From: Candidatus Uhrbacteria bacterium
GTDB lineage: Bacteria > Patescibacteriota > Patescibacteriia > UBA9934 > GWF2-40-263
Direction of reading: 5' to 3'
NCBI GenBank assembly: GCA_016844925.1
Contig: JAERTI010000043.1
Location: 133,110 to 197,109, forward strand
DNA: 64,000 bases
The stretch's first letter is position 1. Every line of letters starts with the position of its first letter. Positions 5,800 to 59,390 of this stretch are shown piece by piece. A model generated the notes under the pieces. It was not told where the DNA came from, searched no databases, and saw only the letters and a list, made by a program, of their open reading frames with translations. Both the position numbers and the translations under genes were made by a program.

Positions 5800-5863
5800 A
5801 CCTGGCGATTATAGCACGGTTGACGCTCTTCAAAAGGTGCGGTAGTCTCAGTCGCTATTACCT

Positions 5864-17565: not shown

Positions 17566-18420
17566 ATGTTCCAACTCGCCCATGCCTCCCTTGTGGGGGC
17601 GGATCATCGAAAGGACCTGCACGCCACCAATGGCCAGGACGCCCTGTGCGTCTTGCCACTTCTCGACTCTCCCTTTGGTGCTGGGTACATCGCGCTCGTG
17701 GCTGATGGCTGCGGGTCGGGTAGTCACACCGAGGTTGGGGCCAAGATCGGCGTGCGTTTGCTGGCGCAGGCGCTTGTCACGCACATGGAGAAGCTTCGGC
17801 CTCGCCATGAGGGTGGCCGGCTGAACTTCAAGGACGTGCTCGAACGCGCCCGTCAGGACGTGCTCGCCCGTCTGCGCATTCTCGCGCTGGACCTGGGCGG
17901 CTCTCTGACGGCCACGGTGAACGACTACTTCCTGTTCACCATCGTCGGCGCCATCGTGACCGAGCAGTACAGCTGCTTCTTCTCACGTGGTGACGGCCTG
18001 GTGGTCGTGGGCGGCGAAGAGATCTGGATTGAGCCGGACGAAGGCAACGCGCCTGTGTACCTGGGCTATGCCCTGGTGGACAGCTCGCTCCACAAGCACC
18101 GGCCGGACGCACTGCGTTTCGACATCCAGCGCTGCATGGCCACAGAACGTCTCGATCACTTCCTGGTCGGCACCGACGGCCTAGCTTACCTCAAGAATGC
18201 GGCGCACTTGCCGCTTCCTGGGAAGCAAACCCTCGTCGGTCCGCTCAGCCAATTCTGGAGCCAGGACAAGTACTTCACCAACCCCGACGCCCTCCGCAGG
18301 CGCCTGGCGCTCATCAATCGATCGCCTGTTCGTCCCGATTGGGAAGGACGGCGACTGATCAAGAGCGCAGGACATCTCAAGGATGACGTCGCATTGATCA
18401 TCGGACGGAGGATTCCATGA
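17566..18420 (+). CDS. PP2C-family Ser/Thr protein phosphatase
   Basis: VADGCGSGSHTEVGA metal-binding motif; GGGAGG RBS. Confidence 0.65.
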   Translation: MFQLAHASLVGADHRKDLHATNGQDALCVLPLLDSPFGAGYIALVADGCGSGSHTEVGAKIGVRLLAQALVTHMEKLRPRHEGGRLNFKDVLERARQDVLARLRILALDLGGSLTATVNDYFLFTIVGAIVTEQYSCFFSRGDGLVVVGGEEIWIEPDEGNAPVYLGYALVDSSLHKHRPDALRFDIQRCMATERLDHFLVGTDGLAYLKNAAHLPLPGKQTLVGPLSQFWSQDKYFTNPDALRRRLALINRSPVRPDWEGRRLIKSAGHLKDDVALIIGRRIP

Positions 18421-20348
18421 AAGAACTCATTGTCTCTGGCAAGCGTGTTCGTCTGGATCCATCAAGCATGGTTGGCAAGGGGGGTGAGGCGGATGTGTAC
18501 CGAGTCGGAAAGGACACGGCCCTCAAGGTCTTCAAGAGCCCAAGCCATCCAGACATCAAGGGTCTGCCCAAAGGAGCTGAGCGTGATGCTCTGGCTCGGC
18601 AGGCTCGCGAGCGGATTGCTGAACATCAGCACAAGCTCCCGGCGTTTCCCAAGGGACTTCCCTCGGGGATCATCGCGCCGACGTCGCTCGCACGCGACAA
18701 GAAGGGTCTCATCCGCGGCTACACCATGCCGCTGGTTCCCAACGCGCGTGAGCTCATGGCGGTTCATGGGGACAAGGATCTGCGCAAGCAGATCGCCCCC
18801 GCGGACGTCGTGGCGCTCTTCACTCGTCTGCATGAGCTGGTCGCGGGAGCACACAAGGCCGGCGTCGTCATTGGCGACTTCAACGACCTGAACGTGCTCG
18901 CACGCAAGGTACTTACTCCTGAGGCCAAGCCCTATCTCATCGACGCGGACTCCATGCAGTACGGCGGGTTTCCCTGCCGAATGTTCACGGCACGATTCGT
19001 GGATCCACTGCTGTGTGACCCTTCGCTCAGCTCGCCGATGCTCAGCGCTCCTCATCAGGAAACCTCGGATTGGTTCGCCTTCGCGGCGATGCTCTTTGAG
19101 AGTTTGCTCTGGGTGGGGCCCTTCGGCGGCGTGCACAAGCCCAAGGATCGATCCGCAAAGGTCGGTCACGATGGGCGTTCGCTCGCGCGCATCAGTGTGC
19201 TGCACGACGATGTGCGCTACCCCAAGCCGGCGCGGCCCTACGGCACGCTCCCCGATGACCTGCTGCAGTACTTCCTGCGCGTGTTCGAGGGAGATCATCG
19301 AGAGGTGTTCCCTCGCGCGCTCATTGACGGACTGCGTTGGACCGCGTGCACGGACTGCGGCTACACGCACGCACGGGCCATGTGCCCGATGTGCGGCGTG
19401 GCGGGTCCAGCGATCTCTCAGAAGATCACGGTGCGCGGCACGGTCACGGCACGAAGAATCTTTCCAACGCCTCGGCTGCGTGGAGATATTCTGCAGGTCA
19501 CCCTCCAGGAGGGGGATCTGCACTACCTCGTGCACGATGCGGGCAAGATCAAGCGCGAAGACGGTTCGGTGGTGCTGACACAGCCCCCCGCGCCGGACAT
19601 GCGTTTCCGCCTCAGCGGCCCCAGGACCTTTGTTGGTCAGGGGAGTCGTCTGGTGGTGGTCGATCCTGCGCGTTCGCCCGAGCTGCTCAGCGTGGACACC
19701 CTTGGTCATCGACCCATGTTCGATGCTACACGTCACCACCTCTACCGGGTGGCCGGCGGAAGGCTCGTGCGGGAAGGGGCCCTTGGGGTTAGCTACGACG
19801 AGCACATCGGCGATGTGCTTGCAGGACAGACGATGATCTTCTGCGGAGAGACCTTCGGCCTCGGGTTCTACCGGGCCGGTGCGATCTTCCAGGCGTTCAC
19901 GTTCACCTCCGCCAAGCGGTCGCTCAACGATTCGTTCAACCTGCCGCCCATTCCCGGGCAGTTGGTCGATGCGTTCGCGCTCTTCTCAAGCTCGCGCTGT
20001 TGGTTCTTCACCACCAGTCAGAGCGGCGGAAAGTTGATCAATCGGTGCACCGTCCTCAAGCAGGACGGAACGATCATTGCCACGCACGAGGCCACGGTCG
20101 GAGACGGCAGTTGGCTCTCGAGCATTCGCGGCGGCTGCGCGGCAACCCTTCCGGGTCCCACGCACTGCCTCTTTGTCCCCACGGACGACGGCATCGTCCG
20201 CATTGATGCCACTTCTGGCGGTCTCACTGAGGCACGGGTCTTCACCGACACCGAGCCGTTCGTCCATGCTGGTGCGCGACTGTTCCTGGCGCGTAAGGGC
20301 ATCGTGGTCGTAAAGGATCATGAAATTGTACTTCTGGAAATGAAGTGA
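18417..20348 (+). CDS. Ser/Thr protein kinase-like with about 380-aa C-terminal extension containing a Zn-ribbon
   Basis: Gly-rich loop GKGGEADVY, ALKVF lysine, HKAGVVIGDFNDLNVL catalytic loop; CTDCGY...CPMCG; ATGA overlap with the phosphatase. Confidence 0.65.
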   Translation: MKELIVSGKRVRLDPSSMVGKGGEADVYRVGKDTALKVFKSPSHPDIKGLPKGAERDALARQARERIAEHQHKLPAFPKGLPSGIIAPTSLARDKKGLIRGYTMPLVPNARELMAVHGDKDLRKQIAPADVVALFTRLHELVAGAHKAGVVIGDFNDLNVLARKVLTPEAKPYLIDADSMQYGGFPCRMFTARFVDPLLCDPSLSSPMLSAPHQETSDWFAFAAMLFESLLWVGPFGGVHKPKDRSAKVGHDGRSLARISVLHDDVRYPKPARPYGTLPDDLLQYFLRVFEGDHREVFPRALIDGLRWTACTDCGYTHARAMCPMCGVAGPAISQKITVRGTVTARRIFPTPRLRGDILQVTLQEGDLHYLVHDAGKIKREDGSVVLTQPPAPDMRFRLSGPRTFVGQGSRLVVVDPARSPELLSVDTLGHRPMFDATRHHLYRVAGGRLVREGALGVSYDEHIGDVLAGQTMIFCGETFGLGFYRAGAIFQAFTFTSAKRSLNDSFNLPPIPGQLVDAFALFSSSRCWFFTTSQSGGKLINRCTVLKQDGTIIATHEATVGDGSWLSSIRGGCAATLPGPTHCLFVPTDDGIVRIDATSGGLTEARVFTDTEPFVHAGARLFLARKGIVVVKDHEIVLLEMK

Positions 20349-20536
20349 ATCGAGAACGCTTGAAACTGGATGAGATCTTGGTGCACGACGAGGACCGGAG
20401 CGAAACGTACAGAGATGTACGTTGAGTGAGGACCGAAGGAGTAAGCCAAGAGATCGCCAGTTTCAAGTGTTCGAGTAGGAACCGTGACGCGACGGCACGT
20501 ACCCCGTCGCACCCCACACAGACACTGGAGACTCAC

Positions 20537-21643
20537 ATGTCTACTCTCCCTCTCCCGGGTCACTTCGACCCCAAGCACGCCGAGATCTTCGGCTACCGAC
20601 CGGACCTGGCGCAGGTCGCCATGGACGCCTTCGACTTCAAGAAGCTCCACAGCATCAAGGCTGCCGGGGCCGATGCGGTCAAGATGGCCGTGGTGCCCAT
20701 CGATGCGCAGGAGGACTTCTCCCATCCGGAGGGCACGCTCTTCGTGGCGGGTCGGTCCGGCCGTGGCGCCATCGACGACGCCGTGCGGCTGACCGAGTTC
20801 CTCTACCGGCACATCCACCTGATCACCGGCATCTACCCGACCTTCGACACGCACTTCGCTCTGCAGGTCTTCTCCGCCCCGTTCTGGGTGGGACCCGCGG
20901 GTGAGCCGCTCTCGCCGCACACGCTCATCGTGGCGGACGCCGGCGGCGTGCTGAACAACATCGGCCTGGATGGCACGGTGCTGATCCGCAACGTGAAGCC
21001 GCGGCCCGAGATGGCCTGGTGGCTCTGCGGTGCCAACTACGGTTGGCTGGTGGGGCAGATGCTGCACTACGTCGAGGAGCTGGCGCGCGGTGGCAAGTAC
21101 ACCCTGTACCTGTGGCCGCCGCATACTCTGCTGGGCACGCCCGGCCACGCCATGACCGGCGTGCTCACCGAGGCGCGGATGTTCCACAGCTACGTGCGTG
21201 GCGTCCAGAGTCACGGCGAGATCAAGGGTGGGCACCCGCTGAGCGAGTGCTACAGCGTCTTCGGCGAGGAGGTCCGGACCCGGTTCGACGGGCAGGCCCT
21301 CGCGTCCAAGAACACCCGGTTCATCGACGTGCTGCTCTCCCACGACGTGGTCGTGTTCGCCGGTCAGGCGGCCAGCCACTGCGTGAAGAGCTCCATCGAC
21401 GACTTCCTGACCGAGCTGGCCCTGCGCGATCCCGCGCTCGCCAGCAAGATCTACATCCTCGAGGACTGCATGAGCTCGGTCACGGTGCCCGACGGCGCCG
21501 GTGGCTTCGCCGCGGACTTCACGGATGACGCGCTGGCCGCCCTGGACAAGTTCCGGGACGCGGGCATGCACGTGGTCAAGTCGACCGATCCGCTCGAGAC
21601 GTGGCCGGATCTGCCCTCGGCGCTGGCTCGTCTGGCGGCGTAG
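20537..21643 (+). CDS. isochorismatase-family cysteine hydrolase-like (nicotinamidase-like) with large insertion
   Basis: VVPIDAQEDF and VVFAGQAASHCVKSS matching the D...K...C triad regions. Confidence 0.45.
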   Translation: MSTLPLPGHFDPKHAEIFGYRPDLAQVAMDAFDFKKLHSIKAAGADAVKMAVVPIDAQEDFSHPEGTLFVAGRSGRGAIDDAVRLTEFLYRHIHLITGIYPTFDTHFALQVFSAPFWVGPAGEPLSPHTLIVADAGGVLNNIGLDGTVLIRNVKPRPEMAWWLCGANYGWLVGQMLHYVEELARGGKYTLYLWPPHTLLGTPGHAMTGVLTEARMFHSYVRGVQSHGEIKGGHPLSECYSVFGEEVRTRFDGQALASKNTRFIDVLLSHDVVVFAGQAASHCVKSSIDDFLTELALRDPALASKIYILEDCMSSVTVPDGAGGFAADFTDDALAALDKFRDAGMHVVKSTDPLETWPDLPSALARLAA

Positions 21644-21735
21644 ATTCCCTTCAACAATCAACAGAATGCCGCTCTCAGGGTTTACGAGATTCCTTCGGGA
21701 TGATCGTGGCCCTGGGACCGGCCAGGAGATGAACG

Positions 21736-22530
21736 ATGAGTTCCAAGAGTGCAACCTCCCTTCTCCAGGGCGCAGCGGCCGATGGGCTGCTGGGTGCTGG
21801 TTCCATGATGGCGTTCCAGGTCCCCAACCTGGGCGCGCAGATCCAGGCGGGTCTGGGTATCAGCGTCGACGACGTGGAGGCCTCCGAGGTCTTCCTGCTC
21901 GCGCAGTTGGTGGACGATTCCGGTTCCATCCGGTTCGGCGCGAACGCCCAGGGCATCCGTGACGGCGTGAACCTGGTCTACGAGTCCCTCGAGGATTCCA
22001 AGACCTCCGGTGACGTGCTGACGTCCTGTCGGTACCTCAACGGCACCGTGCTGGACGCCTACACCCCGCTGGCGAGCGCCACGCGCCTGGACACCAAGAA
22101 CTACGATCCCTACGGCGGCACCCCGCTCTACGACGAGTCGGTGGTCACCCTCGGGACTGTGGTCGCCAAGGCCCAGGAGTTCGAGGACGCCGGTGTGCCC
22201 GTTCGCACGGTCACGGTGATCCTCACCGACGGCGCCGACGCGGGCTCGCGCTCGCAGACGCCCGACTCGGTCAAGGCGATCGTGGAGGACATGATCCGCG
22301 CGGAGAACCACCTGGTCTTCTTCGTGGGCGTGGACGACGGTTACACGGACTTCCGTGCGGTCGCTGCCTCCATGGGCATCCCGCCCGAGTTCGTCCTGAC
22401 CCCCGGCAACAGCCCGAGCGAGATCCGCGCTGCCATGCGCGTTGTCTCCCGCTCGGTCGTCCGGGCCAGCCAGGGCGGCACCGGCTTCTCGCAGACCGCC
22501 ACGAGCGGGCTGGGAGGCTTCGGCGGCTGA
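21736..22530 (+). CDS. von Willebrand factor A domain protein (TerY-like)
   Basis: MIDAS DDSGS at LVDDSGSI, plus TPLYDES and LTDGAD motifs. Confidence 0.7.
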   Translation: MSSKSATSLLQGAAADGLLGAGSMMAFQVPNLGAQIQAGLGISVDDVEASEVFLLAQLVDDSGSIRFGANAQGIRDGVNLVYESLEDSKTSGDVLTSCRYLNGTVLDAYTPLASATRLDTKNYDPYGGTPLYDESVVTLGTVVAKAQEFEDAGVPVRTVTVILTDGADAGSRSQTPDSVKAIVEDMIRAENHLVFFVGVDDGYTDFRAVAASMGIPPEFVLTPGNSPSEIRAAMRVVSRSVVRASQGGTGFSQTATSGLGGFGG

Positions 22531-24530: not shown

Positions 24531-26180
24531 ATGAAGAAGTTACTTTTCGCCCTCATGCTCTTTGTCCCGGCTGTGGTCTTAGCGCAGGTGGGCAGTGCGC
24601 AGACAACGGCGCAGATCCAGTACCCCGTTGAGTGGCTTGGAAACTGTGACAGTGAGCAGCTCTGTCAGGATTACTGCGCGGACGTGACGTTTGTTGATCT
24701 TTGTTACGAAGCAGAGCAGACGTTCGGTGTGAGCTTTTTGACGCAGTCGGCAAGAGAGGCATTTGAGCAGTCACTGGGGATTACGACCACGACTCAGAGC
24801 CCCTACCCGATTCCTATGCTCGACGGCTGTCCTACGCAGCAGGATTGTCAGAACTATTGTTCCAATCCTTCTGAACACATCCTGTGTTACGAGGTTGAGC
24901 TTCAGTATGGGATTGAGTTATTGACCCAGGAGGCTCGAGACATTGTTATTCAAACGGTTACGGGCGGAGCGACGACAACTTCTGCGCAGATCCAGTACCC
25001 CGTTGAGTGGCTTGGAAACTGTGACAGTGAGCAGCTCTGTCAGGATTACTGTGCGGACGTGACGTTCGTTGATCTTTGTTACGAAGCAGAGCAGACGTTC
25101 GGTGTGAGCTTTCTGACGCAGTCGGCAAGAGAGGCGTTTGAGCAGAGTTTGTTAGGCTCGACGGAATCAGAAGAACAAGAACAGGAGCAGGAAGCACAAG
25201 CGACGACAGGCATGAGTCAGATTGACTATCCTATTGAGGAGCTTGGGTTCTGTGACTCTGCGCAGGATTGTCAGAACTATTGTGATGACGCTGCCAACTA
25301 TGAAGATTGTCTCGCCTTTGGGGTTGCAAACGGCATGTATCCCCCTGGACCACAGCAGATGGCAGAAGCTGTGCTTGGAGGTGAGGGACCAGAGGGCTGT
25401 GAAGGATCGACCTGTGCGCAGGTCTGTGACAGTACGACCAATGGTCAGGCTTGTGCCGAGTTTGCCCACGAGAGCGGAGCGATGGATGAGGAAGAGCTCG
25501 AGGCAACTGAGGCTGTACTAGAGCAAGGAGGGCCAGGAGGTTGTGTGACAGAGACTCAGTGCAATACGTACTGTGCAGCGCCAGAGAACGCGCAAGAGTG
25601 TCTCGATTTTGCCGTAGAGCATGGGCTCGTGAGCGAGCAGGAGCGTGAGCGCGTTGAAGCTCTTCAGCAAGGAGGCCCTGGTGGATGTGTAGGAGAGAAA
25701 GAGTGTCACGCGTATTGTTCTCAGGATCAGAACATCAAAGAATGCATGTTGTTCGCTCAGGAGCACGGTCTTATGAGCGAGGAAGATCAGCAGCACGTCC
25801 AAGATCTTCACTTGGAAACACTCAATGGCCCCGGTGGGTGTCAGAGCGATATCGAGTGCTATAACTACTGTTCAGAGCCACAGCATGAACAGGAGTGCCT
25901 GCAATTTGCCTTGGATAATGAGATCGAGGTTGTGACACAGATGTTAACAACAGAGAGCGTTCAGTCTGATGATGCCGACACCCAGACCACAGACGTGAGT
26001 GATGTGATTACCGTGGTTGATCCGGAAACAGGAAAGTCCATGCAGGTTCGTTTGGAGGATTTGCTCGATGAAGATATGGAGCTCTCTGACCATCCTGCAG
26101 GGTGTAGTACTCGAGAGGAGTGTCGGGAGTACTGCGAGTTACCAGAGAACAGAGACGATTGTTTACCTTTTTCAGGTTAG
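24531..26180 (+). CDS. secreted cysteine-rich repeat protein (about 38-aa C-x-C-x-YC modules)
   Basis: Signal peptide; repeated GPGGC...C..YC....EC..FA..HG modules; internal near-identical DNA duplication. Confidence 0.6.
   Translation: MKKLLFALMLFVPAVVLAQVGSAQTTAQIQYPVEWLGNCDSEQLCQDYCADVTFVDLCYEAEQTFGVSFLTQSAREAFEQSLGITTTTQSPYPIPMLDGCPTQQDCQNYCSNPSEHILCYEVELQYGIELLTQEARDIVIQTVTGGATTTSAQIQYPVEWLGNCDSEQLCQDYCADVTFVDLCYEAEQTFGVSFLTQSAREAFEQSLLGSTESEEQEQEQEAQATTGMSQIDYPIEELGFCDSAQDCQNYCDDAANYEDCLAFGVANGMYPPGPQQMAEAVLGGEGPEGCEGSTCAQVCDSTTNGQACAEFAHESGAMDEEELEATEAVLEQGGPGGCVTETQCNTYCAAPENAQECLDFAVEHGLVSEQERERVEALQQGGPGGCVGEKECHAYCSQDQNIKECMLFAQEHGLMSEEDQQHVQDLHLETLNGPGGCQSDIECYNYCSEPQHEQECLQFALDNEIEVVTQMLTTESVQSDDADTQTTDVSDVITVVDPETGKSMQVRLEDLLDEDMELSDHPAGCSTREECREYCELPENRDDCLPFSG
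24611..25143 (+). repeat. intragenic duplication: 24611..24769 and 24985..25143 about 97% identical
   Basis: GCAGATCCAGTACCCCGTTGAGTGGCTTGGAAACTGTGACAGTGAGCAGCTCTGTCAGGATTACTG... repeated 374 bp apart. Confidence 0.8.
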
Positions 26181-26183
26181 GGT

Positions 26184-26936
26184 ATGAGATATCTATTTAC
26201 GATGATGGTCGTCTTGATACTGATTGGAGCAGGTTGTGCAGGGGGAGGCGAATCGGTGATGGATAGCGCGACTGACGGTGTTCTGCCAAATACGTTTTAC
26301 GGGTACATGCATTGGACACACGAAGACCCGGGTCAGAATAATCTTCAGTGGACGGTGGGGCATGAGTCTGATGTCGTGCTCGAGTTTACGGGTTCTGGGA
26401 ATGGACGTTGGGATATCAGTGGTAGTGTTGTGGGAAACCCAGCGACCTACATCTGCTCCACCTCATCTCCTGAGGTTGGATGTGATCTAACCGACATCTC
26501 AGGAGGTCTGATAGAAGGAGAGGCGTTTGAGACGGGTGGTGCTCTTGCCGTGGAGCTCGGTTGGAAAAATGGCACCTACCCGATTGAGACCGGAACGTTG
26601 ATTATTCCAGCGCCACTTACAGAGATTGTTTCTGAGACTGAGCTTGCTGTCTTGAATACAGATCTCGTTAGTGAGTTCGTTGGGACACAATGGAGCTTGC
26701 CTCTTATGGGAGCGGTCTTTCTCGATGACGCCGCGATACTTGCTTCCGACCTCGAATCTGGCACCTACGCAGACGTCGAGCTCACCTACGGACTCCCGCC
26801 GACAGACCCGATCGTACGCGACTGGCAGGCGGAGGTAGCGGCAAAAACGTTTGCGGCACAGACGCCGCTGTATGGTGAAGGCTACGGGACGTTCTATCTC
26901 TTCGGTGGGCATCCAGATCTGACAGTTCTTCGGTAA
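26184..26936 (+). CDS. lipoprotein, hypothetical
   Basis: Signal peptide plus lipobox LIGAGC. Confidence 0.55.
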   Translation: MRYLFTMMVVLILIGAGCAGGGESVMDSATDGVLPNTFYGYMHWTHEDPGQNNLQWTVGHESDVVLEFTGSGNGRWDISGSVVGNPATYICSTSSPEVGCDLTDISGGLIEGEAFETGGALAVELGWKNGTYPIETGTLIIPAPLTEIVSETELAVLNTDLVSEFVGTQWSLPLMGAVFLDDAAILASDLESGTYADVELTYGLPPTDPIVRDWQAEVAAKTFAAQTPLYGEGYGTFYLFGGHPDLTVLR

Positions 26937-26974
26937 ATGGAGTGATTTTATCTGTAACAACAGAGGTGGAACAT

Positions 26975-28261
26975 ATGGTTAAGAAAAGACGAGGGCCCGA
27001 TCGGTCCGAGAGGATGAGGGCTCGGGTTGAGGTGTTCAAACCAGAAAGCACGCGGTTTGATCTTGAGGGTCAGCGTGTTGATCTCAAAACATTTCGTGTG
27101 ACCAATCTTGAGAATCCAACGCCTACGACACCGGGTTTGATGGAGACGGGAAAGGCCTCAGAGGTCATGGAGCAGCATCGGGATCGAAAAGATTTTGTGC
27201 ACCAGTTATTCGGAAAAGATCTCGTAAAGATTCCGTACACGCTGTTGCATGCTGATCAGAAGGGGTTGTTTGGTGATTTTTCTTCTCCAGAAGGGCAGGA
27301 TCTGTTTGCTGACGCAGATATGGTGATCGAGGATGGTGAGAATAGCTTGCCAGAATGGGCAACGGCCTTACATCGATTTGCCGAACTGAAACTTGGAAGA
27401 CGTTTCACCCTTGATGAGGAACTCACGGCCCTACGTGGTTTAGAACGCCGAGGAAAGTCCATGCGGTTTACGGTTGGAATGAGTCGTTATTCGCAAGCGT
27501 TTTTCAGCATGGGCTCAGAGGGGGTCCGGCTTGAGCTTACAGATGAAGATCGTCAGCGTCTCAAGGAGTCAGGATTTGATTCCAGTCATCTTGATGAGCT
27601 CGAAGGTCTTACAGACCTCCTGCAGGGAACCCATGGCGCCCGGACGATCCGAGAAGTGATCCAGAAGGAAACCGGTGGCCTTCCGGATTTTAATCAGCGT
27701 GTGCATCACTACTTATTAGGTGTTGCTGGGACGGTCCTGACACGTGATGGCGATGTGGTATTCGTGAATCGGGGTGCAGGTGTGTCTGTGAACCGTGGGA
27801 TTAACGTGACGGCCTCAGGGGGAGTGAAGTTTAAGAAAGACTATTTAGCGCGGCATGGACTACAGCGTCACCTGGGCAGGCAGATGCATGAAGAGGCACG
27901 AGAGGAAATTGGGTTGAAGTCTGGTGACTTGTTGCTTGGAGCCATGCAGGAACGTATTGCTCTTGAACTTGGCGTAGGGGAGTCGGAATACGATTTGGTG
28001 CCGGTGGGGATGGCGAGAGAACTCCCTCGTGGTGGGAGCCCAGAGGTGATGTTCATGATTCAGTTCCGTGGTGATACGCAGGATTTGGTGAATCGAATCG
28101 CTGGGAACACCCATGAGGATCGTTCTGAGATTGATAGTTTGGTGTATGCGTATCCCATGGAAGAAGTACGGAAGCTGTTGAAACAATCTGATGCCGAGCG
28201 GGTTGTGCAACACAAAGGGCTGCTTAACCTTATGATGATGGATCGGTACTTGTCTCAGTAG
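26975..28261 (+). CDS. hypothetical protein (possible degenerate Nudix-like C-terminal region)
   Basis: GAGGTGG RBS; ASGGVKF...EEAREEIGL. Confidence 0.4.
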   Translation: MVKKRRGPDRSERMRARVEVFKPESTRFDLEGQRVDLKTFRVTNLENPTPTTPGLMETGKASEVMEQHRDRKDFVHQLFGKDLVKIPYTLLHADQKGLFGDFSSPEGQDLFADADMVIEDGENSLPEWATALHRFAELKLGRRFTLDEELTALRGLERRGKSMRFTVGMSRYSQAFFSMGSEGVRLELTDEDRQRLKESGFDSSHLDELEGLTDLLQGTHGARTIREVIQKETGGLPDFNQRVHHYLLGVAGTVLTRDGDVVFVNRGAGVSVNRGINVTASGGVKFKKDYLARHGLQRHLGRQMHEEAREEIGLKSGDLLLGAMQERIALELGVGESEYDLVPVGMARELPRGGSPEVMFMIQFRGDTQDLVNRIAGNTHEDRSEIDSLVYAYPMEEVRKLLKQSDAERVVQHKGLLNLMMMDRYLSQ

Positions 28262-28312: not shown

Positions 28313-28357
28313 GGTTGGAAAAGAAAAAACGCTGCGTGCCAGCGTCGAGGGTTCGTT

Positions 28358-29269
28358 CTAAGTCTGGGGCGAGAGCCTCTTTCCTAGGAGGTATCCAAGG
28401 AGCGCTCCTGGAAGAAGGGTCATGAGTGCCGGGACCGGCTGAGACGAAAGAAGCAGGATGGCCTCTGTGGCGACCCAGCCAAGGCTGATGCCGGCAAGGG
28501 TCGCTCCGACCACGTAGGTTCGTCTGGTTCCGCTCGGTGTCTGAAAGGCGAGGAGCATCCAGAAGCCGGGGAAGATGATGTCACCTAGCCCGATCATGGC
28601 AGAGGGTTCTGCCGTCAGGTTGAGTGAGCTTGGGACGGTGATGATCATGCTGTTGGTCGTGGGCTGTGCGGTCAGTTGTTCCGCGAGGTCGACCATGTAC
28701 CCCGTGCCGTAGACGTTGATCACGTCGTAGAAGAAGAAGCCAACAGAGAGGAAGAGCAGAACCCGGAAGGGGATCTTGCTGTACTGAATCAGGACAGAGC
28801 TCAGCATGAGGGTGGCCGCCAGTGCGCTGATGGGCCAGACCTCTGGAAGTAGCACGTGCAAAGCAGTAATGACCGTTGCTGCAGCGGTGCCCGCAACAGC
28901 TTGTGCGATAGACCCTTTGCTATTGAGCACATAGGCGAGGAGGTAGGTGATCAAGAACCATTCCAACGTGACCATGAAGGCCGTGATGAGTCCTTGCCAT
29001 CTAACCAAGAGGAAGGTGAGTCCTGCGAGCACGGCCGTCATGGCTATGGCTACGCATACAGCTCCGAGTGTCACCTGTGCGGACGGAGATGTTGTGGCGA
29101 TCTGGCGTGCTACGCGGTTTCCCCGGGGATGGATTAGTGCCCTCCAGAGGTGCACCCAGTCAACACGGGTTGCTGGATGAACGAGATTTGACTGTGCCAG
29201 GGTGCCCAGGCACAGGTAGTAGATGGGTACGAGAACCAGGGTCAGTAGCAAGCTGGGGACAATCGACAC
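28358..29269 (-). CDS. presenilin/signal-peptide-peptidase family (A22, GxGD) intramembrane aspartyl protease homolog
   Basis: YD (FFFYDV), GLGD (MIGLGDIIFPG) and PAL (QPVPALMTLLPGAL) motifs in successive TMs. Confidence 0.6.
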   Translation of the reverse strand: MSIVPSLLLTLVLVPIYYLCLGTLAQSNLVHPATRVDWVHLWRALIHPRGNRVARQIATTSPSAQVTLGAVCVAIAMTAVLAGLTFLLVRWQGLITAFMVTLEWFLITYLLAYVLNSKGSIAQAVAGTAAATVITALHVLLPEVWPISALAATLMLSSVLIQYSKIPFRVLLFLSVGFFFYDVINVYGTGYMVDLAEQLTAQPTTNSMIITVPSSLNLTAEPSAMIGLGDIIFPGFWMLLAFQTPSGTRRTYVVGATLAGISLGWVATEAILLLSSQPVPALMTLLPGALLGYLLGKRLSPQT

Positions 29270-29388
29270 GGCTCACCTCCTTCGAAGCGCAGCCTGACCG
29301 TAGTGTGTTGGAGGAGAGTTGTCAAAAAGCGGCTTGTTTTGTGGGTGATCGATGGTTGTGCTACGGTCGCCTTCCAGGAGGAACGGCC

Positions 29389-30552: not shown

Positions 30553-31376
30553 TTACGCGAGCCTGCGGAGCATCGCGATGCGTTCGTTGACCGAGGGGTG
30601 CGTTCGCAGTGGGCCGTTGCGGTCGCGAGCGAACGGCTTGCGGCCGTGTGCTTCGTCGATGTACGTGTGTTCACGCAGCAGGGAGGTGAGCAGGGCGCAG
30701 AAGGCATCGACATCTCCATTCAATGCCACGATGAACGCGTCGGCGCAGCGTTCGTTCTCCCGCTGGCTCATGACGAAGAGCCATTCGAAGGGGAGGAACA
30801 GACCCCTGAGGACACCCGCCACCAGACGACCAGCTCGCCCGTACTTGTGCGGGAGCGCGAGGATCTTCAGAAAGAATTTGGTGGGCATCATGACCCACTG
30901 CAGGGACCAGTTGTTTGGGCAGTAGTGGTGCCCGAGCTCGTGGGCGATGACCGTAGCGGCCTGCGCCTCGTCCACCAGCGACAGCAGGGATTCTGAGACG
31001 AGGATCTGAATGCCGTTGCCGTTGCTGTTGATGATTGCGGCCGTGGGCCGCGGTCTGCTGAAGACTTCGAAGCGGATGTCTTCCGGGGCGTGTGTCAGAT
31101 CCAAACGCGTGAGGACGTCTTGGAATCGCTCAGCTTCTTCTTCTGTTGGTTCGCGAGTGCGGACCAGCTTGAGTGCCTGCCGCTGAATCAGGGCGAGGGC
31201 TCCTTGCGGGATCACGATCAGGAGCATGATTCCGAGGATCATCCCCGGGAGACCCAGAAGGATGCTGGCCAGACCAATGAGGGTCAGGTAGCTCAGCCCC
31301 AGCATCAACGAAAGGACAATGGAGTTCCGTCCATGGCGTCGCCAGGCACGAAAGGCCCGGTGTTGTCTGTTATTCA
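30553..31376 (-). CDS. M48-family Zn metalloprotease (HtpX-like)
   Basis: HELGHH and HPSVNERI motifs; TTG start after GGAGG. Confidence 0.7.
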
Positions 31377-31512
31377 AAGCGTACCTCCAGATTTCGATCC
31401 TATGAGGTTGAGAGTTTTCCGTCAATGAAACAGAGGGTGGTTTTGTTTGACAGAAGACGTGAGATCCCGTTAACTCCCAGCGCCTTGATTGCTTACCGGA
31501 GGTACAGGCAAG

Positions 31513-32969
31513 TGAATACCAGGACCTTGACATTCGACGCCGAGGGCGTCCCAATCCACCCACGGGCCTATCGGTTCAGGCGGTTCCTCAACTGGTTCCC
31601 GTTGGGGCTCGGCTACGCCAGCCTCATGTTCATGCGCTACAGCCTGAACCCAGCCAAGAGTGCGTTGGGTGACCAGCTGATGGACATCAAGGAGTTCGGC
31701 TTCATCTTCGGGATGGGCGCGTTCTTCTACTTCATCGGCTTCATGGTCAACGGCCCGCTGGTCGACCGCAAGGGCGGCCGCTGGGGCATGATCACCGGCG
31801 TCGGTGGGGCCATGACGGCCAACCTGCTGATGGCGCTGTGCATCTACGGCGTGATGGTCCTAGGCTGGACCCTGCCGCTGTTCTGGGCGCTGCTGATCCT
31901 CTACTCGATCAACATGTTCTTCCAGTCGCTGGGGGCCATGTCCATCGTGACTACCAAGATGCCGTGGTTCCACGTGCGAGAGCGCGGGACCTTCGGCACC
32001 ATCTTCGGCATCATGATCTCGCTGGGCATCTACTTCGCCTTCGATTGGGGCTACGCGATCCGGTCGGCCACCCGTGCGGTGGTCGATGTCGGTGAGCTCT
32101 CCATGACCGAGCGTGTTTTCCAGTGGCTGCTGCAGTCGGGCAACACGGGTGTCGACCAGAACTGGTGGATGTTCCTGTTCCCTGCGCTGTTCGCCGTCCC
32201 CTGGCTGGTGCTGATGATCGCGTTCCTGCGCAACAGGCCCAGTGACACGCTGAAGTTCAAGGACTTCGAGACCGGTGACCAGCAGGTCGCTGAGCGCACG
32301 CTCACGCTCCGCGAGATGTTCGACAAGATCTTCAATGATCCCCAGCATCGCGTGCTGTTGATCATCTGCGCGATCGAGTTCTGCTCGGGCGTGGTGCGCA
32401 ACGGCGTGTTCCAGTACTACCCGCAGTTCGCGCAGTCCGTGGGTTTCTACAAGGACTTCTTCCTGACGGCCAACTGGGGCCTGTGCCTGATGATCTGCGG
32501 CATCACCGGTGGCTTGCTCACCGGCTGGATCTCGGACAAGTTCTTCGGCTCCCGCCGCGGACCCATGGTGATGTTCCTCTACGGGTTCATGACCGTGGCC
32601 ATGATCATGATCCTGATCTCGCTCACGTCCAACGCGCCGGGCGCGGGAGCGATGATGACCGGCATCGGCGTGCTGATCATCGCCACGAGCATCATCGGTG
32701 TTCACGGGATCCTCTCGGGAACCGCCGCTGGCGACTTCTCCGGCACGAAGAACACGGGCAAGGCCGTGGGCATCGTCGACGGAGCCGTCTACGTCGGCAC
32801 CGGCATCCACTCCGTCGTCATGGGCTTCTTCCTGAGCACGGGAGAGGCGGCCTCGGATCCGGCAGCCTGGTACGCCTGGCCGGTGGTCATCATTCCCTTC
32901 GTGGTGATCGGCGCGGTGCTCTCGCTCAAGATCTACCACGCCTTCCCCAAGTCAGGAGGCGGCCACTGA
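31513..32969 (+). CDS. MFS transporter
   Basis: 12 TM pattern, GC-rich; start uncertain (ORF opens at 31425). Confidence 0.65.
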
Positions 32970-33157
32970 GGGAGTGGCACACGGCAGGGTTACACCCCTG
33001 CGGAGTCTCAAGCGAGACTCCTTTTTTGTTGTCATTAAGGGGATTGGGTGCGTTGAATCCCTTGACAAACAGGCTCAATTGCGTACACTCGCGGCGCATG
33101 CGAGCGGGAATCCAGCAGTGAGGTTGGCCTGTAGAGTATGTGCAAAAAGGAAGAGAA

Positions 33158-35113
33158 ATGCGTGCGCGCATGAGTGTTGTGTCTCTGGTGCTTCTTGGTG
33201 CCTGCAGTGGGAAGGGAGACTGCCCCGCTGGCTTGGGTCACTGTGACACCGGAGCGGTCGTGAATCCGCCTACGGATGTCGATGGAGATGGCTACACCTT
33301 CGTCGATGACTGCGACGACAACAACCCGGATGTGAACCCCGGGGCGACCGAAGTCGAGTGCAACGACATCGACGACGACTGCTTCGAGGGAACGCCCGAC
33401 CACCTCGATGCTGATCGAGACGGGTACAACACCTGTGAGGATCTCGACATGTTCCCCAAGGGGGGTGACTGCGACGACGGTGACGATAGCGTCTACCTCG
33501 GCGCCGAAGAGCTCTGTGACGGTGTCGACAACAACTGTGACGGCGATGTGGACGAAGGAGGTCCCTGGTACCCCGATGCCGACGGTGATCGCTACGGCGA
33601 TGGCACGCAGGCTTCGGCCAGTACTTGCGACAGCTCGACGGCCAGCTACGCCTCCGGTGGGACCGACTGCGATGACAGCGACCCGGACACCTATCCGGGT
33701 GCGGCCAAGCAGGACAGCACCACCGCGTGCATGACCGATATCGATGGAGACGACTACGGCAGCGATGCGCCCGCCAGTGGGGTGACTGCCGGCACGGACT
33801 GCAACGACGACAACGAGAACACGAACATCGCCAGCGGCTACAACGAGTCGGACCCCGGTGCCTGCATGAAGGACACGGACTTCGATGGCTACGGCGACTC
33901 GGGCTCGGGAGAGGGTGTCACCGCCGGCACCGACTGTCAGGACTACGACGAAGACATCCACCCGGGTGCCTACGACGAGTGCTTCGACGGTGTCGACAGC
34001 GACTGCGACGGCATGGACGAGGAGGACTGCGAGTGTCCCGGCGAGCTCATTGGCTCCTGGAACACGGACAGTGAAACCGAGGGCATCGAGTGGTGGATCT
34101 CAGACAACGGCGTGTGCGCCTGGATGGTGGACCGCTGGGACTACTGGGGCAACTATCACGACACCGATGAGATCGACTACGACCGCAACGTCGAGGACCT
34201 GAGCTTCCAGCTCTCCTTGGTGGGCTTCCTCTCCGAGGATCTGACCATCGCGGTCGGGAGCTGGGATGTCGATGGCGTGGCGTTCACCGAAGGTGGCACC
34301 ATGTACATCGCCAACACGGTCGATGAGTCCGTGACCCCCACGCCCGACCATGACGTCCGCGGCGGCGCGGCCGTTGCCTACCACGACTCCAGTACGGGCG
34401 TGGTCGAGGTGCTCCTCTACGCCGAGTACGAGTCCTACGACCCCACGGCCTACCTGGTGGGAACCTTCGTGGATGCCGCGACGCTCTCGCTCGCGGTCGC
34501 CGATGGGGACCTGCTCTACGGGGCGGGCAACAGCGGCTTCGATGGCAACTGCGGGACCTGGACGGATCTGAGTGGCTCCATGAACTGGACGCTCTCGGGT
34601 TCCTACAGCGAGTCCAACTGGTGTCCGGCAACCACCTACTGGTGTGAGACGGCTGCTGGCTACGAAGGCGACGTACTCGGTCTGGGTACTGGTCAGTGGG
34701 AATGTCCCGAGGGCGCAGCCCAGGGCAAGGCCTACGTGAGTGAGCACGGGTCGCGCTACGTGCGCGGCACCACCCCCGGCTACCAGTGGATGGATCCGGC
34801 GGTGCTGCAGGTGCTCTTCGAGACCTTCGAGCAGGTGCGCGACATGACGCCCGAGCAGCAACGTGCCTGGGCGCGGCTCATGGCCAAGAACATCGACGAT
34901 CCGGCTTCGCGCGAGCTGGCCGTGCTCCAGATGGATGTCGGTGTCCTGCTCTACGACACCAACGAGGACTTCCGCGCGGAGATCGACGCGCTCTACCTCG
35001 ATGGCGTGAGCAGTGACTACACGGACGAGAGTCTCTACTTCCGTCTGCTCCGCACGCTCTTCAAGTACAACCTCCCCCGCAAGAAGGTGGCAGGCCCCCC
35101 GCCCGCCAACTAG
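33158..35113 (+). CDS. lipoprotein with repeated Cys/Asp-rich 'putative metal-binding motif' modules (myxobacterial type)
   Basis: Lipobox LLGAC; more than 8 repeats of DxDGDGY...DCDDxDxxxxPGAxExCDGxDNxCDG. Confidence 0.65.
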   Translation: MRARMSVVSLVLLGACSGKGDCPAGLGHCDTGAVVNPPTDVDGDGYTFVDDCDDNNPDVNPGATEVECNDIDDDCFEGTPDHLDADRDGYNTCEDLDMFPKGGDCDDGDDSVYLGAEELCDGVDNNCDGDVDEGGPWYPDADGDRYGDGTQASASTCDSSTASYASGGTDCDDSDPDTYPGAAKQDSTTACMTDIDGDDYGSDAPASGVTAGTDCNDDNENTNIASGYNESDPGACMKDTDFDGYGDSGSGEGVTAGTDCQDYDEDIHPGAYDECFDGVDSDCDGMDEEDCECPGELIGSWNTDSETEGIEWWISDNGVCAWMVDRWDYWGNYHDTDEIDYDRNVEDLSFQLSLVGFLSEDLTIAVGSWDVDGVAFTEGGTMYIANTVDESVTPTPDHDVRGGAAVAYHDSSTGVVEVLLYAEYESYDPTAYLVGTFVDAATLSLAVADGDLLYGAGNSGFDGNCGTWTDLSGSMNWTLSGSYSESNWCPATTYWCETAAGYEGDVLGLGTGQWECPEGAAQGKAYVSEHGSRYVRGTTPGYQWMDPAVLQVLFETFEQVRDMTPEQQRAWARLMAKNIDDPASRELAVLQMDVGVLLYDTNEDFRAEIDALYLDGVSSDYTDESLYFRLLRTLFKYNLPRKKVAGPPPAN

Positions 35114-35159: not shown

Positions 35160-35293
35160 GATAGACAAAGAAAAAATCCCTCAAGGGCAGCAGGGGTCAG
35201 AGTTTGCCTTGAGCATGGAGTTGTTTCAGGGTTCAGCATTGGGGATAAGCCCGGTCTGTTATCATGGCTCTACAATTCTTAACCTTTGAGTGT

Positions 35294-37168
35294 ATGAACA
35301 CGACGTTTCAATTAAGAGTCACGTTTTTACTTGCCGTATTAGCGGCGTTTTCCGTATTTCTCCCGTCAGTAGTAAATGCGGCATCGATCTCCGTGACCAC
35401 AACCCAAGATGAATTTGTTGTAGACGGAGATTGTTCTTTGCGTGAAGCTATTTACGCAGCAAACACCGATCAAGCCTATGATCAGTGTGCCGCCGGGTCT
35501 GGGGCAGATACGATTCAAGTTCCTGCAGGAACCTACGTCTTGAATCTCGCTCCGCAGGGGCAGGATGATGATATTGGTCAGATTGGGGATTTAGATATTT
35601 ACTCCGACATCGAGATTATTGGTGCAGGTATTGGTGCCACCATCATTGATTCTCAGTTGACCTCCTTTGGTATCGAGACTATTCCCTCGACATCAGCCCG
35701 CCTGCGACTACATAATCTTGAGGCACGTTATGTGAAGAGTCGAGTTCAGGCAGATTATTCTGGGACGACATTCGGAACAATGGAGCTCGACACGGTACAT
35801 TGGAAAGAAGCTGATATTTATTCGCTCGAGCATGCTCAGGTGATGGCGGTGGCAACGTTATTTGAGGGGACTGGTGCAGAAGGAATGTACGTTTCTGGAG
35901 CTCAGGTTCTTTTTGATACGGTGACGGTCCATAACTTTGATCTTGATATGGGTGTGGGTACCGATTCGGCGGGGCTATTAACCATTGATAGTTATCTGGA
36001 TATTTCAGATTCGCTTATTGAAGCAAATGGTGATAGTGGAATTAAGCTGGCACACCAAAATCCGTACAGCTTCTCAGCACGTGCATATCTCCGAGTTCGC
36101 ACGTCAACTATTACAAATAATCAGCACTCTGGAATCTGGAATACGGCCGGTGAGATCATGATAGAAGATACGATATTGAGTTTTAATGGTGACCCTGCAG
36201 GTTGGGGTGGGGGAATTGAGAACCGTGCAGGAGGAAAGGTTCATCTTGTTCGCACACAGGTGATGAATAACATTGCTCGAGAAGGTGGTGGTATCTACAA
36301 CGGTGAGTCACACATGGTGAACGGAGTGTTGGTTACGCCGGAGGTGACTATTGAGGATGGTTCGATTATCGCTTCCAATATCGTGACGAGTAACTCCTTT
36401 GGAGGGGGTCATGGTGGAGGTATTTACAATGAAGGTATGGTGTCCCTGATGGAGTCAACGGTTGCAGATAACATGGCTGAATATTTTGGTGGAGGTATCT
36501 ATAACCGAGTTCCTGACGACATTACTCACTACACTTACTCAGAAGAAAGCCCGTGGGAGATTACTGTGACGACGGTGCTTGATCCGGACATTGATTCTTT
36601 TGTGACGGTCGATCAGTCTACAATCTCAGGAAATGATGCCCTTCGTGGTGGAGCGCTCTATAACTGGAGCCGGGCTTCGTTTGTGAATAGTACGGTGAGT
36701 GGAAACTCAGCGGTTTCCAATAGTGGAGGTATCTATAACTACACTGCTGATGCCCTGACAGACATTGATTTCAGTACGATTACCAGCAACACCGGAGGGC
36801 TCTACAACATGGGATCTGCGTTCAATATTCAAAATAGTATTGTTGCCATGAATAGTGGTGCTGACTGTGCAGGGACACAATCTGGGTGGCAGTCTATGGG
36901 ATCGAATCTTGAGAGTGGAACAAGTTGTAACTTTACGCAGTTTGGTGACTTGCAGAATACAAACCCACAGCTTGGTGCCTTGCAGATGAACGGCGGAAAG
37001 ACCGAGACCCACGCTTTAACGTTTGGTAGTCCGGCGATCGATGCTGTGCAGAACCCCACGATGATTACGTGGGATCAGCGCGGAGAGGTTCGTCCAAAGG
37101 ATGGTAATTACGACGGGTCGCTTGATGAAGATATCGGGGCCTATGAGTATTGGTCTTGGCACGAGTAA
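35294..37168 (+). CDS. secreted CSLREA-domain protein with parallel beta-helix repeats
   Basis: Signal peptide; DGDCSLREAIYAANTD motif; repeated GGGIYN beta-helix turns. Confidence 0.65.
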   Translation: MNTTFQLRVTFLLAVLAAFSVFLPSVVNAASISVTTTQDEFVVDGDCSLREAIYAANTDQAYDQCAAGSGADTIQVPAGTYVLNLAPQGQDDDIGQIGDLDIYSDIEIIGAGIGATIIDSQLTSFGIETIPSTSARLRLHNLEARYVKSRVQADYSGTTFGTMELDTVHWKEADIYSLEHAQVMAVATLFEGTGAEGMYVSGAQVLFDTVTVHNFDLDMGVGTDSAGLLTIDSYLDISDSLIEANGDSGIKLAHQNPYSFSARAYLRVRTSTITNNQHSGIWNTAGEIMIEDTILSFNGDPAGWGGGIENRAGGKVHLVRTQVMNNIAREGGGIYNGESHMVNGVLVTPEVTIEDGSIIASNIVTSNSFGGGHGGGIYNEGMVSLMESTVADNMAEYFGGGIYNRVPDDITHYTYSEESPWEITVTTVLDPDIDSFVTVDQSTISGNDALRGGALYNWSRASFVNSTVSGNSAVSNSGGIYNYTADALTDIDFSTITSNTGGLYNMGSAFNIQNSIVAMNSGADCAGTQSGWQSMGSNLESGTSCNFTQFGDLQNTNPQLGALQMNGGKTETHALTFGSPAIDAVQNPTMITWDQRGEVRPKDGNYDGSLDEDIGAYEYWSWHE

Positions 37169-37177
37169 CTGATCGAG

Positions 37178-37210
37178 CAAAAAAGAAGGTCACAAGACCT
37201 TCTTTTTTCG
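37178..37210. terminator. bidirectional terminator
   Basis: AAAAAGAAGGTC-ACAA-GACCTTCTTTTTT. Confidence 0.75.
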
Positions 37211-37257
37211 TAAGAAAAATCCCGAGCAAGAAGCTCGGGGGAGGGGTGGCCGTGAGG

Positions 37258-37890
37258 CTACTGCGTCGGGTACAGGCGGTCGCCGGCGTCGCCCAGGCCC
37301 GGGACGATGTAGGCGTCCTCGTTGAGCACTTCGTCCACGGCGCCGATGACGATGTCGACGTCCGGGTGCTCGCGCTCCATGCGGGCGATGCCCTGGGTGC
37401 AGCCGAGAACACCCACGAAGACGATGCGACCCGCGCCGCGGTCCTTGAGGTGCTGCACGGCGAAGCTGGCGCTGCCGGCGGTGGCCAGCATGGGATCGAG
37501 CACGAAGCAGGTGCCGATGGGGAACATGATCGGGGTGGGGACCTTGGAGTCCGTGAAGATCGGTCCAAAGGGTGGCTCGTGGGAGCGGCTCATGGACAGG
37601 TGCCAGATCAGTGCCTCGGGCAGGTAGGCCAGGAACGCATCGAGCATGCCGTGGCCAGCGCGCATGACGGGGACCAGGGCGTGCTGCTCGTTGATGATCG
37701 GGCAGTCGGTCTGAGCCAGTGGCGTGGTGACGAGTCTGCTGGTCGTCGGGAGGCCGGCGGTGGCCTCCGTGGCCAGCACCAGGCTCAGGCGGTGGAGCTG
37801 CGCGCGGAATTCGGCAACACCGGTACGCTTGTCGCGCAGACGCGCAACAGCATCCTGTGCGATGGCGTGAGAGAGGATGGTGACAGACAT
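37258..37890 (-). CDS. upp: uracil phosphoribosyltransferase
   Basis: VLDPMLATAGS and YIVPGLGDAGDR motifs; GC-rich. Confidence 0.8.
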   Translation of the reverse strand: MSVTILSHAIAQDAVARLRDKRTGVAEFRAQLHRLSLVLATEATAGLPTTSRLVTTPLAQTDCPIINEQHALVPVMRAGHGMLDAFLAYLPEALIWHLSMSRSHEPPFGPIFTDSKVPTPIMFPIGTCFVLDPMLATAGSASFAVQHLKDRGAGRIVFVGVLGCTQGIARMEREHPDVDIVIGAVDEVLNEDAYIVPGLGDAGDRLYPTQ

Positions 37891-38005
37891 GGTTCTTACC
37901 TCCGTGTGAAACCGTGGCAACTCTAGGGGCCATCGTGCTGGCTGTCAACCAGAAGACAGGAGAGTCTCGTGGTAAACTACCGCCGTTAATCTGTGATTGA
38001 TTGGT

Positions 38006-51115: not shown

Positions 51116-51144
51116 AACAGACCCCTGTGGGTCTGTTTTTTTTA
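51114..51144. terminator. bidirectional terminator
   Basis: AAAACAGACCC-CTGT-GGGTCTGTTTTTTTT. Confidence 0.8.
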
Positions 51145-57026: not shown

Positions 57027-57178
57027 ATGAAAAAAGGCCGGCAGACGGCCACTAGGCACATGCCCAGGGGGGTCCACGCGGGGTTAGGGTTAATTAACAA
57101 CGTCACGAGTGTAGCGGCAGAGGGGTTTTTCGTCAAGGTATTAAAGAAAAAACCGACCCGGGGTGGGTCGGGGTGTCG

Positions 57179-58405: not shown

Positions 58406-58491
58406 GATGACTCCATTGTATGTGTGCGGTTACGAAGCACGGGCGAGAGACTAAACAATTTTACAAACAATAGCAAGGGATCTGTTTGTGG

Positions 58492-58524
58492 AAAAAAGAA
58501 AACGACCGCTGTCGTGGCGGTCGG
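58492..58524 (-). terminator. terminator (minus strand)
   Basis: CGACCGC-TGTCGTG-GCGGTCG with a U-run on the minus strand. Confidence 0.6.
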
Positions 58525-58534
58525 GGATGGCGGT

Positions 58535-59275: not shown

Positions 59276-59390
59276 GTGTTCTCCGTTGGTTAGGTTATAC
59301 ACATGGAGCACCTCCTTTATCTGGTTGTGTTCGCGGGATGCAAACGACTGCAGAGAATAGGGAATTTTCCCCGAATTGTCAATCTATCTG

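Follow-up and report, generated by a model that had tools for sequence, protein, structure and literature searches.

The window analyzed here, a stretch of 64,000 nucleotides from contig JAERTI010000043.1, encodes on its minus strand a 303-amino acid membrane protein that, judging from profile matches and a structure model, almost certainly belongs to family A22 of the GxGD-type intramembrane aspartyl proteases and has the A22 fold. From its sequence, the protein is best described as a signal peptide peptidase (SPP)-type A22 protease, neither a presenilin nor an orthologue of the archaeal presenilin/SPP homolog (PSH). The best explanation overall, to which we give a probability of about 0.75, is that it is a stand-alone SPP-type protease cutting type II-oriented transmembrane helices such as leftover signal peptides. 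The original prediction, made from the nucleotide sequence, had described a 303-amino acid open reading frame (ORF) coding for a bacterial presenilin/SPP homolog, and this ORF is present exactly as described. A second A22 copy was sought within the 64-kb window and none was found. The features of the gene and of its product are the following:

28358–29269, minus strand: coding sequence of the GxGD-type intramembrane aspartyl protease, family A22, SPP-like, 303 amino acids (ORF, PF04258 match, AlphaFold2 model and Foldseek comparison)
28724–28729, minus strand: YD motif, Y181-D182, with the first putative catalytic aspartate, in helix 6 (residues 168–189) (translation, alignment to the YD of PSH and SPPL2a, and model)
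28580–28591, minus strand: GLGD motif, G227–D230, with the second putative catalytic aspartate at the N-terminal end of helix 7 (residues 229–242) (translation and model)
28424–28432, minus strand: PAL motif, P280-A281-L282, directly before helix 9 (residues 282–299) (translation and alignment to SPPL2a QPALLYLVP)
28589–28645, minus strand: beta-hairpin of the loop between helices 6 and 7, residues 209–213 and 222–227, containing the invariant P213 (DSSP strands in the model)
29276–29282, minus strand: Shine-Dalgarno sequence AAGGAGG, 6 nt 5′ of the GTG start codon (sequence check)
28318–28346, minus strand: intrinsic-terminator-like hairpin and T-tract, 11 nt 3′ of the stop codon (weak evidence taken alone)

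Motifs, fold and predicted orientation of the protease

Translation of the gene located the YD (181–182), GLGD (227–230) and PAL (280–282) motifs in the order that had been predicted, within the stretches FFFYDVINV, MIGLGDIIFPG and QPVPALMTLLPGAL. An alignment of 40 family sequences has a mean column identity of 27%, and D182, P213, G227, D230, P234, P280, A281 and P287 are invariant in it, while G229 is kept in at least 90% of the sequences. The third position of the PAL motif can be L, T or M in the relatives. In the larger set of 154 relatives described below, GxGD was found in all 154 and PA[LTMIV] in 145. The invariance of the aspartates, the GxGD glycines, PAL and P287 amid about 27% identity is a signature of selection on catalysis, and the window protease is probably catalytically active.

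Peptidase_A22B (PF04258) was the sole Pfam family matched by the protein, with 46.4 bits and E = 5.4e-12 over residues 80–292. This score is well above the gathering score of the model (23.3 bits), so the resemblance to A22 goes far beyond chance, and the search with A22 models that had been proposed as a check on the original prediction returned a positive result. PF04258 was also matched by all 40 aligned relatives, 21 of which matched the archaeal-type PF06550 as well and one the Presenilin family. The window protease itself did not match PF06550, PF01080 (Presenilin) or Peptidase_A24, even at E ≤ 0.1. When single sequences were compared by phmmer to the proteins in the PDB, the only significant match was PSH (4HYC; E = 5.2e-5, 22% identity), with the YD and GxGD motifs aligned.

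The number of relatives was assessed in several collections. A word-indexed search of 5.8 billion clusters with the single sequence retrieved only the protease itself, as hydrophobic words saturate the candidate list, and the same search with the 40-sequence profile retrieved only four proteins owing to the same saturation. When 1.84 billion representatives were scanned exhaustively with HMMER, 154 relatives were found at E ≤ 1e-3. Only 4 of them had E-values below 1e-30, and these share 35–36% identity with the window protease over the matched stretch and 32–34% in a global alignment. The best match in a scan of GTDB species representatives was 35% identical, and the cluster formed by the protease at 90% identity has four further members, from ENA, Logan and JGI data. 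The statement in the original prediction that such homologs are sparse in bacteria is consistent with 154 representatives among 1.84 billion as far as sparseness goes; the representatives carried no taxonomic labels.

The AlphaFold2 model built from the 40-sequence alignment (mean predicted local distance difference test score, 91.6; predicted template modeling (TM) score, 0.89) consists of nine long helices, at residues 3–25, 62–90, 92–114, 121–140, 145–162, 168–189, 229–242, 248–275 and 282–299, and the hydropathy profile is consistent with it. In the model, D182 lies inside helix 6, GLGD follows the strand 222–227, which is paired with the strand 209–213, and PAL precedes helix 9. A Foldseek comparison to the PDB showed that the top 20 matches were all SPPL2a, presenilin-1 or presenilin-2 in gamma-secretase, or PSH. 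Of these, the leading 17 had TM-scores of 0.51–0.71 at a probability of 1.00, and after the 20th match the probability fell from at least 0.94 to at most 0.13. The gamma-secretase–substrate structures 6IYC and 6IDF were among these fold matches, and no structure of FlaK or of a prepilin peptidase was found among the Foldseek matches in the PDB. The topology and structure checks that had been suggested were thus carried out: the nine-helix model matches only A22 structures and has both aspartates within transmembrane helices.

Several comparisons place the protein closer to SPP and the SPP-like (SPPL) proteases than to other branches of the family. The family profile scored highest in the PDB against human SPPL2a (1.5e-34; PDB 9K92/9K93), ahead of PSH (1e-20), presenilin-2 (1.7e-6) and presenilin-1 (2.8e-5). 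A profile limited to the window protease and the four nearest relatives whose bacterial context had been verified kept the order, with E-values of 2.2e-10 for SPPL2a and 6.4e-6 for PSH. As in the members of A22B (PF04258), the motifs YD, GxGD and PALxxLxP occur at identical spacing, the loop between helices 6 and 7 is short and two strands precede GxGD; the stretches VIRVP and ILGFGD of SPPL2a align with the strands of the beta-hairpin. The PAL region has the layout PAL-x4-P (P280 to P287), matching the spacing of PALLYLVP in SPPL2a. Like SPPL2a, to which the TM-score is 0.60–0.66, the window protease has nine helices and a predicted N-out/C-in orientation, and no partner subunits are implied. 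It differs from SPPL2a in having a bacterial host, in its length of only 303 amino acids, without a luminal PA domain or a tail for retrieval to the endoplasmic reticulum, in an identity of about 15–16% in the structural alignment, and in reading QPVPAL where SPPL2a has GQPAL.

PSH (MCMJR1; 4HYC/4HYG/4Y6K; PF06550) resembles the window protease in being a prokaryotic, stand-alone protein of about 300 amino acids with nine helices. However, PSH reads QAGLPPL at the aligned position and has no PAL, which is present in the window protease. Moreover, the window protease scored 35 bits against the NCBIfam model for the archaeal PSH equivalog (NF041679), well short of the cut-off of 125 bits, and none of its 40 closest relatives came near that cut-off (best E-value 8.9e-17). 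In a rough neighbor-joining tree rooted on PSH, a protein named Halobacteriales archaeon by NCBI (P0164) and the PF06550-type protein P0163 are located beside the root, outside the clade of the window protease. With presenilin (A22A, PF01080) the window protease shares the fold (TM-score 0.60–0.71 to presenilin-1 in 8K8E, 8OQZ, 6IYC and others), the catalytic logic and PAL. On the other hand, it does not match PF01080, the profile comparison gives no better than 1e-5 to 1e-6 and covers helices 7–8 only, the predicted orientation is the opposite, the loop between helices 6 and 7 has about 39 residues instead of the long cytosolic loop in which endoproteolysis takes place, and there are no nicastrin, APH-1 or PEN-2 partners. 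In sum, the protein has the A22 and A22B sequence and fold features that can be tested and fails as a PSH equivalog, a presenilin or an A24 enzyme. The earlier designation as a presenilin/SPP homolog therefore holds at the level of A22 and is refined to SPP-like by the profile, the PAL-region motif and the predicted orientation, with the presenilin-like and PSH-equivalog options set aside.

Lysine and arginine residues are distributed asymmetrically over the model. There are 12 on loops 1, 3, 5 and 7 and the C-terminus and one on the opposite side, and the family means for the same sides are 11.7 and 2.9. By the positive-inside rule, loops rich in lysine and arginine face the cytoplasm, so the distribution of charges points to an N-out/C-in protein, oriented as SPP is and inversely to presenilin. 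SPP and SPPL proteases are N-out and cut type II substrates, and presenilins are N-in and cut type I substrates (PMC7768045). If the N-out orientation is correct, the substrates of the window protease should be type II (N-in/C-out) helices.

Proposed function and rate of divergence

The catalytic mechanism can be proposed by homology with PSH, SPP and presenilin. D182 in helix 6 and D230 in helix 7 would face each other across a water-accessible cavity within the membrane, and the pair would activate a water molecule to hydrolyze a peptide bond inside the transmembrane helix of the substrate. The turn formed by PAL before helix 9 would shape the cavity and, together with helix 9, close it. Strand pairing with an extended substrate is known from gamma-secretase–substrate structures, and the two strands that precede GLGD may in the same way hold the substrate, once unwound, as an additional beta-strand. 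The substrates would be type II helices, the likeliest being signal peptides left in the membrane after cleavage by signal peptidase and similar stubs. The protease would then have a role in membrane housekeeping, transcribed from a gene of its own and requiring no partner subunits. The clearance of signal-peptide or type II stubs as the physiological role is put forward tentatively, with somewhat less than even odds.

Several points weigh against a stand-alone SPP-type protease of this kind. The genomic context is not conserved and yields no clue to the substrate. The orientation, with the N-terminus and the loop between helices 6 and 7 outside and the C-terminus in the cytoplasm, is probable, and it comes from the count of charges in the model only. 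The fast divergence described below could mean weak constraint, which would fit a dispensable function. A literature search on bacterial members of A22 found no paper, with the key phylogeny of archaeal intramembrane aspartyl proteases outside its coverage. Finally, the physiological substrates even of archaeal PSH are listed as unknown (PMC9263693).

The main rival explanation would also be an active A22 protease, one engaged in regulated intramembrane proteolysis rather than in bulk clearance. After a site-1 cut, it would cleave only one or a few particular regulators that span the membrane once in the type II orientation, such as an anti-sigma factor or a transcription factor tethered to the membrane, and would be a functional analogue of the site-2 proteases RseP and RasP. 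The fold, motif and orientation evidence for such an enzyme is identical, and eukaryotic SPPLs process particular type II substrates once these have been shed (PMC7768045). Still, neither the window nor the relatives examined have a sigma, anti-sigma or membrane-tethered regulator gene linked to the protease gene, which is moreover monocistronic, and this leaves regulated proteolysis unlikely even though two divergent paralogues lying side by side in one relative (L077) would fit substrate specialization and fast divergence could reflect co-evolution with lineage-specific substrates.

The rate at which the protease has diverged was compared with that of the genes around it. The closest genome locus, L002, comes from a metagenome-assembled genome (MAG) titled “Parcubacteria group bacterium bin.251”. 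The A22 proteins of the window (28358–29269) and of L002 (4982–5917, P0006) are 32–34% identical, while the flanking genes are 73–82% identical. Gene order differs between the two loci: about 10 kb of window genes have no counterpart in this part of L002, and the major facilitator superfamily (MFS) gene is on the other side. A gap of the same kind separates the A22 proteins of two further loci, L009 (8001–8906) and L003 (6001–6897), which share 43% identity over their best 197 residues, from the products of neighboring genes, DnaK (90%), HrcA (81%), the Kef-type transporter (73%) and GrpE (59%). Between L009 and L077 (1886–2782), the Kef-type proteins are 76% identical and the A22 proteins 37%. 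The gap is thus seen in two independent genome sets, and it is absent from the MFS, AI-2E and Kef proteins of these loci, which are polytopic membrane proteins as well. In this clade the catalytic residues are fixed while the rest of the protein, as its sequences indicate, changes several-fold faster than its neighbors.

Two origins of the gap can be considered. The window protease and P0006 are sisters in the rough neighbor-joining tree, and the gap reappears in L009, L003 and L077, where the protease gene keeps its place beside the Kef-type gene. For these reasons the sequences favor rapid divergence of orthologues rather than replacement by a paralogue, and xenologous replacement is a less likely reason for the low identity with P0006 (33%), although the different gene order in L002 and the existence of paralogues (in L077) would fit replacement. 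As for the cause of the divergence itself, the sequences are compatible with either relaxed constraint or adaptive change.

The unusually fast divergence with respect to syntenic neighbors in two independent genome pairs, and the lack of any relative between 35% and 90% identity in the 5.8 billion clusters, would also suit a protein with the A22 fold whose main role is not proteolytic, such as the ion leak or scaffold proposed for presenilins, or a weakly constrained gene in decay. We consider this improbable, well below regulated proteolysis, because the 40 sequences show no variation at the two aspartates, the GxGD glycines, PAL or P287, with GxGD in 154 of 154. In addition, independent assemblies carry the ORF intact and with the same sequence, copies of at least 90% identity occur in several metagenomes, and the model is confidently folded. 

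The last alternative, a type IV prepilin or preflagellin peptidase (family A24) serving a pilus system with the T2SSE/PilB-type ATPase encoded in the same window (51142–52875), has in its favor the GxGD motif and polytopic nature of the window protein, A24 being the usual family of GxGD proteases in bacteria, and the presence of that ATPase, but it is effectively refuted by the lack of a Peptidase_A24 match at E ≤ 0.1 and of any FlaK or prepilin-peptidase match by Foldseek, and by the presence of PAL and the nine-helix A22 fold in place of the other helix count and fold of A24, which has no PAL; the pilus ATPase is, besides, 22 kb away. PSH and FlaK have little structural similarity (PMC4985597).

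Gene, genomic context and host

The ORF starts with GTG (29267–29269) and ends with TAG (28358–28360). The GTG start is supported by the conservation of the N-terminal helix in the four closest relatives, in which P15, Y18, L24 and S27 are invariant. The GC content at the three codon positions (0.59/0.46/0.70) is that expected of a genuine coding frame. An independent Logan assembly (L001, SRR13374099) contains an identical protease gene, and the identity of the DNA extends over 14 kb. A scan of 1.4 kb gave one terminator-like site, and shuffled sequences gave an expectation of 0.9; the position of the hairpin directly 3′ of the stop codon makes a real terminator plausible, which is suggestive only. 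Both neighbors are on the opposite strand, a convergent 439-amino acid ORF (26942–28261, plus strand) and a divergent MOSC gene (from 29389, plus strand). Given these neighbors, the Shine-Dalgarno sequence of its own and the terminator-like hairpin, the protease gene appears to be a single transcription unit.

The neighbors named in the original prediction, exported and lipoprotein genes, a MOSC protein and an HtpX-like protease, are all real. The divergent gene codes for a protein with MOSC_N and MOSC domains, an M48/HtpX-like protease is encoded in the ORF 30553–31563 (minus strand), and signal-peptide or lipobox-like N-termini were found in the products of 24531–26180, 26184–26936, 33140–35113 and 35264–37168. 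No linkage between the homologue and any of the MOSC, M48, exported Cys-rich protein and lipoprotein genes was seen in L002, L003, L009, L011, L074, L075 or L077. In L002, the homologue sits between upp and an MFS gene, with the unrelated upp immediately upstream. It adjoins a Kef-type Na_H_Exchanger/TrkA_N gene in L003, L009, L010, L014 and L077, and in L011 it follows the pyruvate kinase gene. Assignment of a function from the neighborhood was rejected, since the neighbors differ between relatives. With a neighborhood that is not conserved and a monocistronic gene, nothing about function can be read from the context. In L077, two A22B paralogues (1886–2782 and 5065–5934; P0008 and P0015, 29% identical) flank one Kef-type gene, and the two copies fall in different subclades.

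Other genes of the window were also inspected. The real upp gene is located at 37261–37944 (minus strand), with a uracil phosphoribosyltransferase match at E = 2.7e-53 and 73% identity to the L002 orthologue. Opposite to it there is an ORF at 37150–37926 (plus strand), and the gene call at this place in the identical Logan contig (L001, 1344–2018) has no family match; this call on the opposite strand over upp looks like spurious antisense. The plus-strand gene 24531–26180 encodes an exported protein of 549 amino acids with a signal peptide, 36 cysteines and no Pfam family. A module of about 55 amino acids (AQIQYPVEWLGNCDSEQLCQDYCADV...) occurs in it twice and is followed by repeated GGPGGC...C..YC units. 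Its L002 orthologue is only 44% identical, so that this protein is fast-evolving too. The product of 33140–35113 (plus strand) has 657 amino acids. Its N-terminus resembles a lipobox (LLGAC), it contains three putative metal-binding repeats of the MopE type (PF11617, E = 5.7e-23), and its gene belongs to the roughly 10 kb of window genes absent from the syntenic stretch of L002. Neither Pfam nor NCBIfam was matched by the products (439–706 amino acids) of 26942–28261, 35264–37168, 18417–20348 and 57173–59293 (all plus strand) and 20318–21754 (minus strand). Nearly all 2-kb bins have a positive GC skew, the cumulative skew climbing steadily over the window (1–64000), and the GC content ranges from 0.46 to 0.64.

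The original prediction took the protein to be bacterial, and the gene content of the window and the bacterial contexts of the nearest clade bear this out. The window encodes FtsH, a ribosomal protein S1 with multiple S1 domains, GyrA, SMC and RecQ, as well as a type II/type IV pilus secretion ATPase and a VanW protein that also has a peptidoglycan-binding domain, a set of genes that identifies the host as a bacterium. An AI-2E transporter, an MFS transporter, upp and RecQ are common to the window and L002 at 73–82% amino acid identity, which places the window organism in the lineage of L002. The neighbors in the nearest clade are hrcA-grpE-dnaK (L009 and L010; L003 by tblastn), ftsZ-nrdR-pyk (L011) and MacB/FtsX-YknX (L074), and they show that this clade is found in bacterial contexts. 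A homologue with 26% identity was found in a further Parcubacteria MAG (L004), and the more distant matches include MAGs titled Methanobacteriota, Thermoplasmatota and Aenigmatarchaeota.

The L003 contig (CAYRYG010000018.1) is titled “uncultured Gammaproteobacteria bacterium”. By tblastn, its hrcA-grpE-dnaK genes are 59–90% identical to those of L009, and it has the same A22-Kef neighborhood. HrcA-controlled dnaK operons are unusual for Gammaproteobacteria, and for this reason the taxonomic label of L003 may be wrong. Some distant A22 loci, from metagenomes, have an extremely low GC content, 15–16% in L056 and L057 and 22–23% in L025, L031, L061 and L062. In L062 a eukaryote-type topoisomerase IB gene adjoins the A22 homologue, so part of the “family” collected by the pattern search is probably not bacterial. 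Pfam scans of the neighbors in the more distant loci were mostly uninformative on the domain of life.

Significance for the family

Presenilin/SPP-type proteases have been studied mostly in eukaryotes, and our searches of the PDB returned no solved prokaryotic A22 structure besides archaeal PSH. The assignment to the family is not in itself new, because the PF04258 tag is already set by public pipelines. The practical gain is modest, as Pfam assigns the family automatically and there is no sign of a new mechanism. The analysis adds a useful refinement to an SPP-type protease, predicted to be N-out and not a PSH orthologue, together with the rate anomaly, which is the most original element: the catalytic motifs are frozen in a protein that otherwise changes five-fold faster than the membrane transporters encoded nearby. 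An enzyme clearing signal peptides or stubs would add a fourth bacterial route for their removal beside SppA, RseP/S2P and the rhomboids, and a partner-free bacterial enzyme of 303 amino acids with the predicted SPP orientation would suit the study of type II helix recognition.

A broader and speculative proposal, which we regard as unlikely, is that the protease represents a clade of compact SPP-type proteases in uncultivated bacteria, at least some of them labeled Parcubacteria/Candidate Phyla Radiation (CPR), that are nearer to eukaryotic SPP/SPPL than to archaeal PSH by profile. Its members might replace SppA or RseP as a signal-peptide-clearing or site-2-like protease in these reduced genomes and be under accelerated evolution, possibly driven by substrates or antagonists, given an identity of 33–43% between positional orthologues against 73–90% for their neighbors. 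If this were true, SPP-type proteolysis would extend to the third domain of life, and the clade would offer a compact bacterial system, free of partner subunits, in which to study the SPP orientation.

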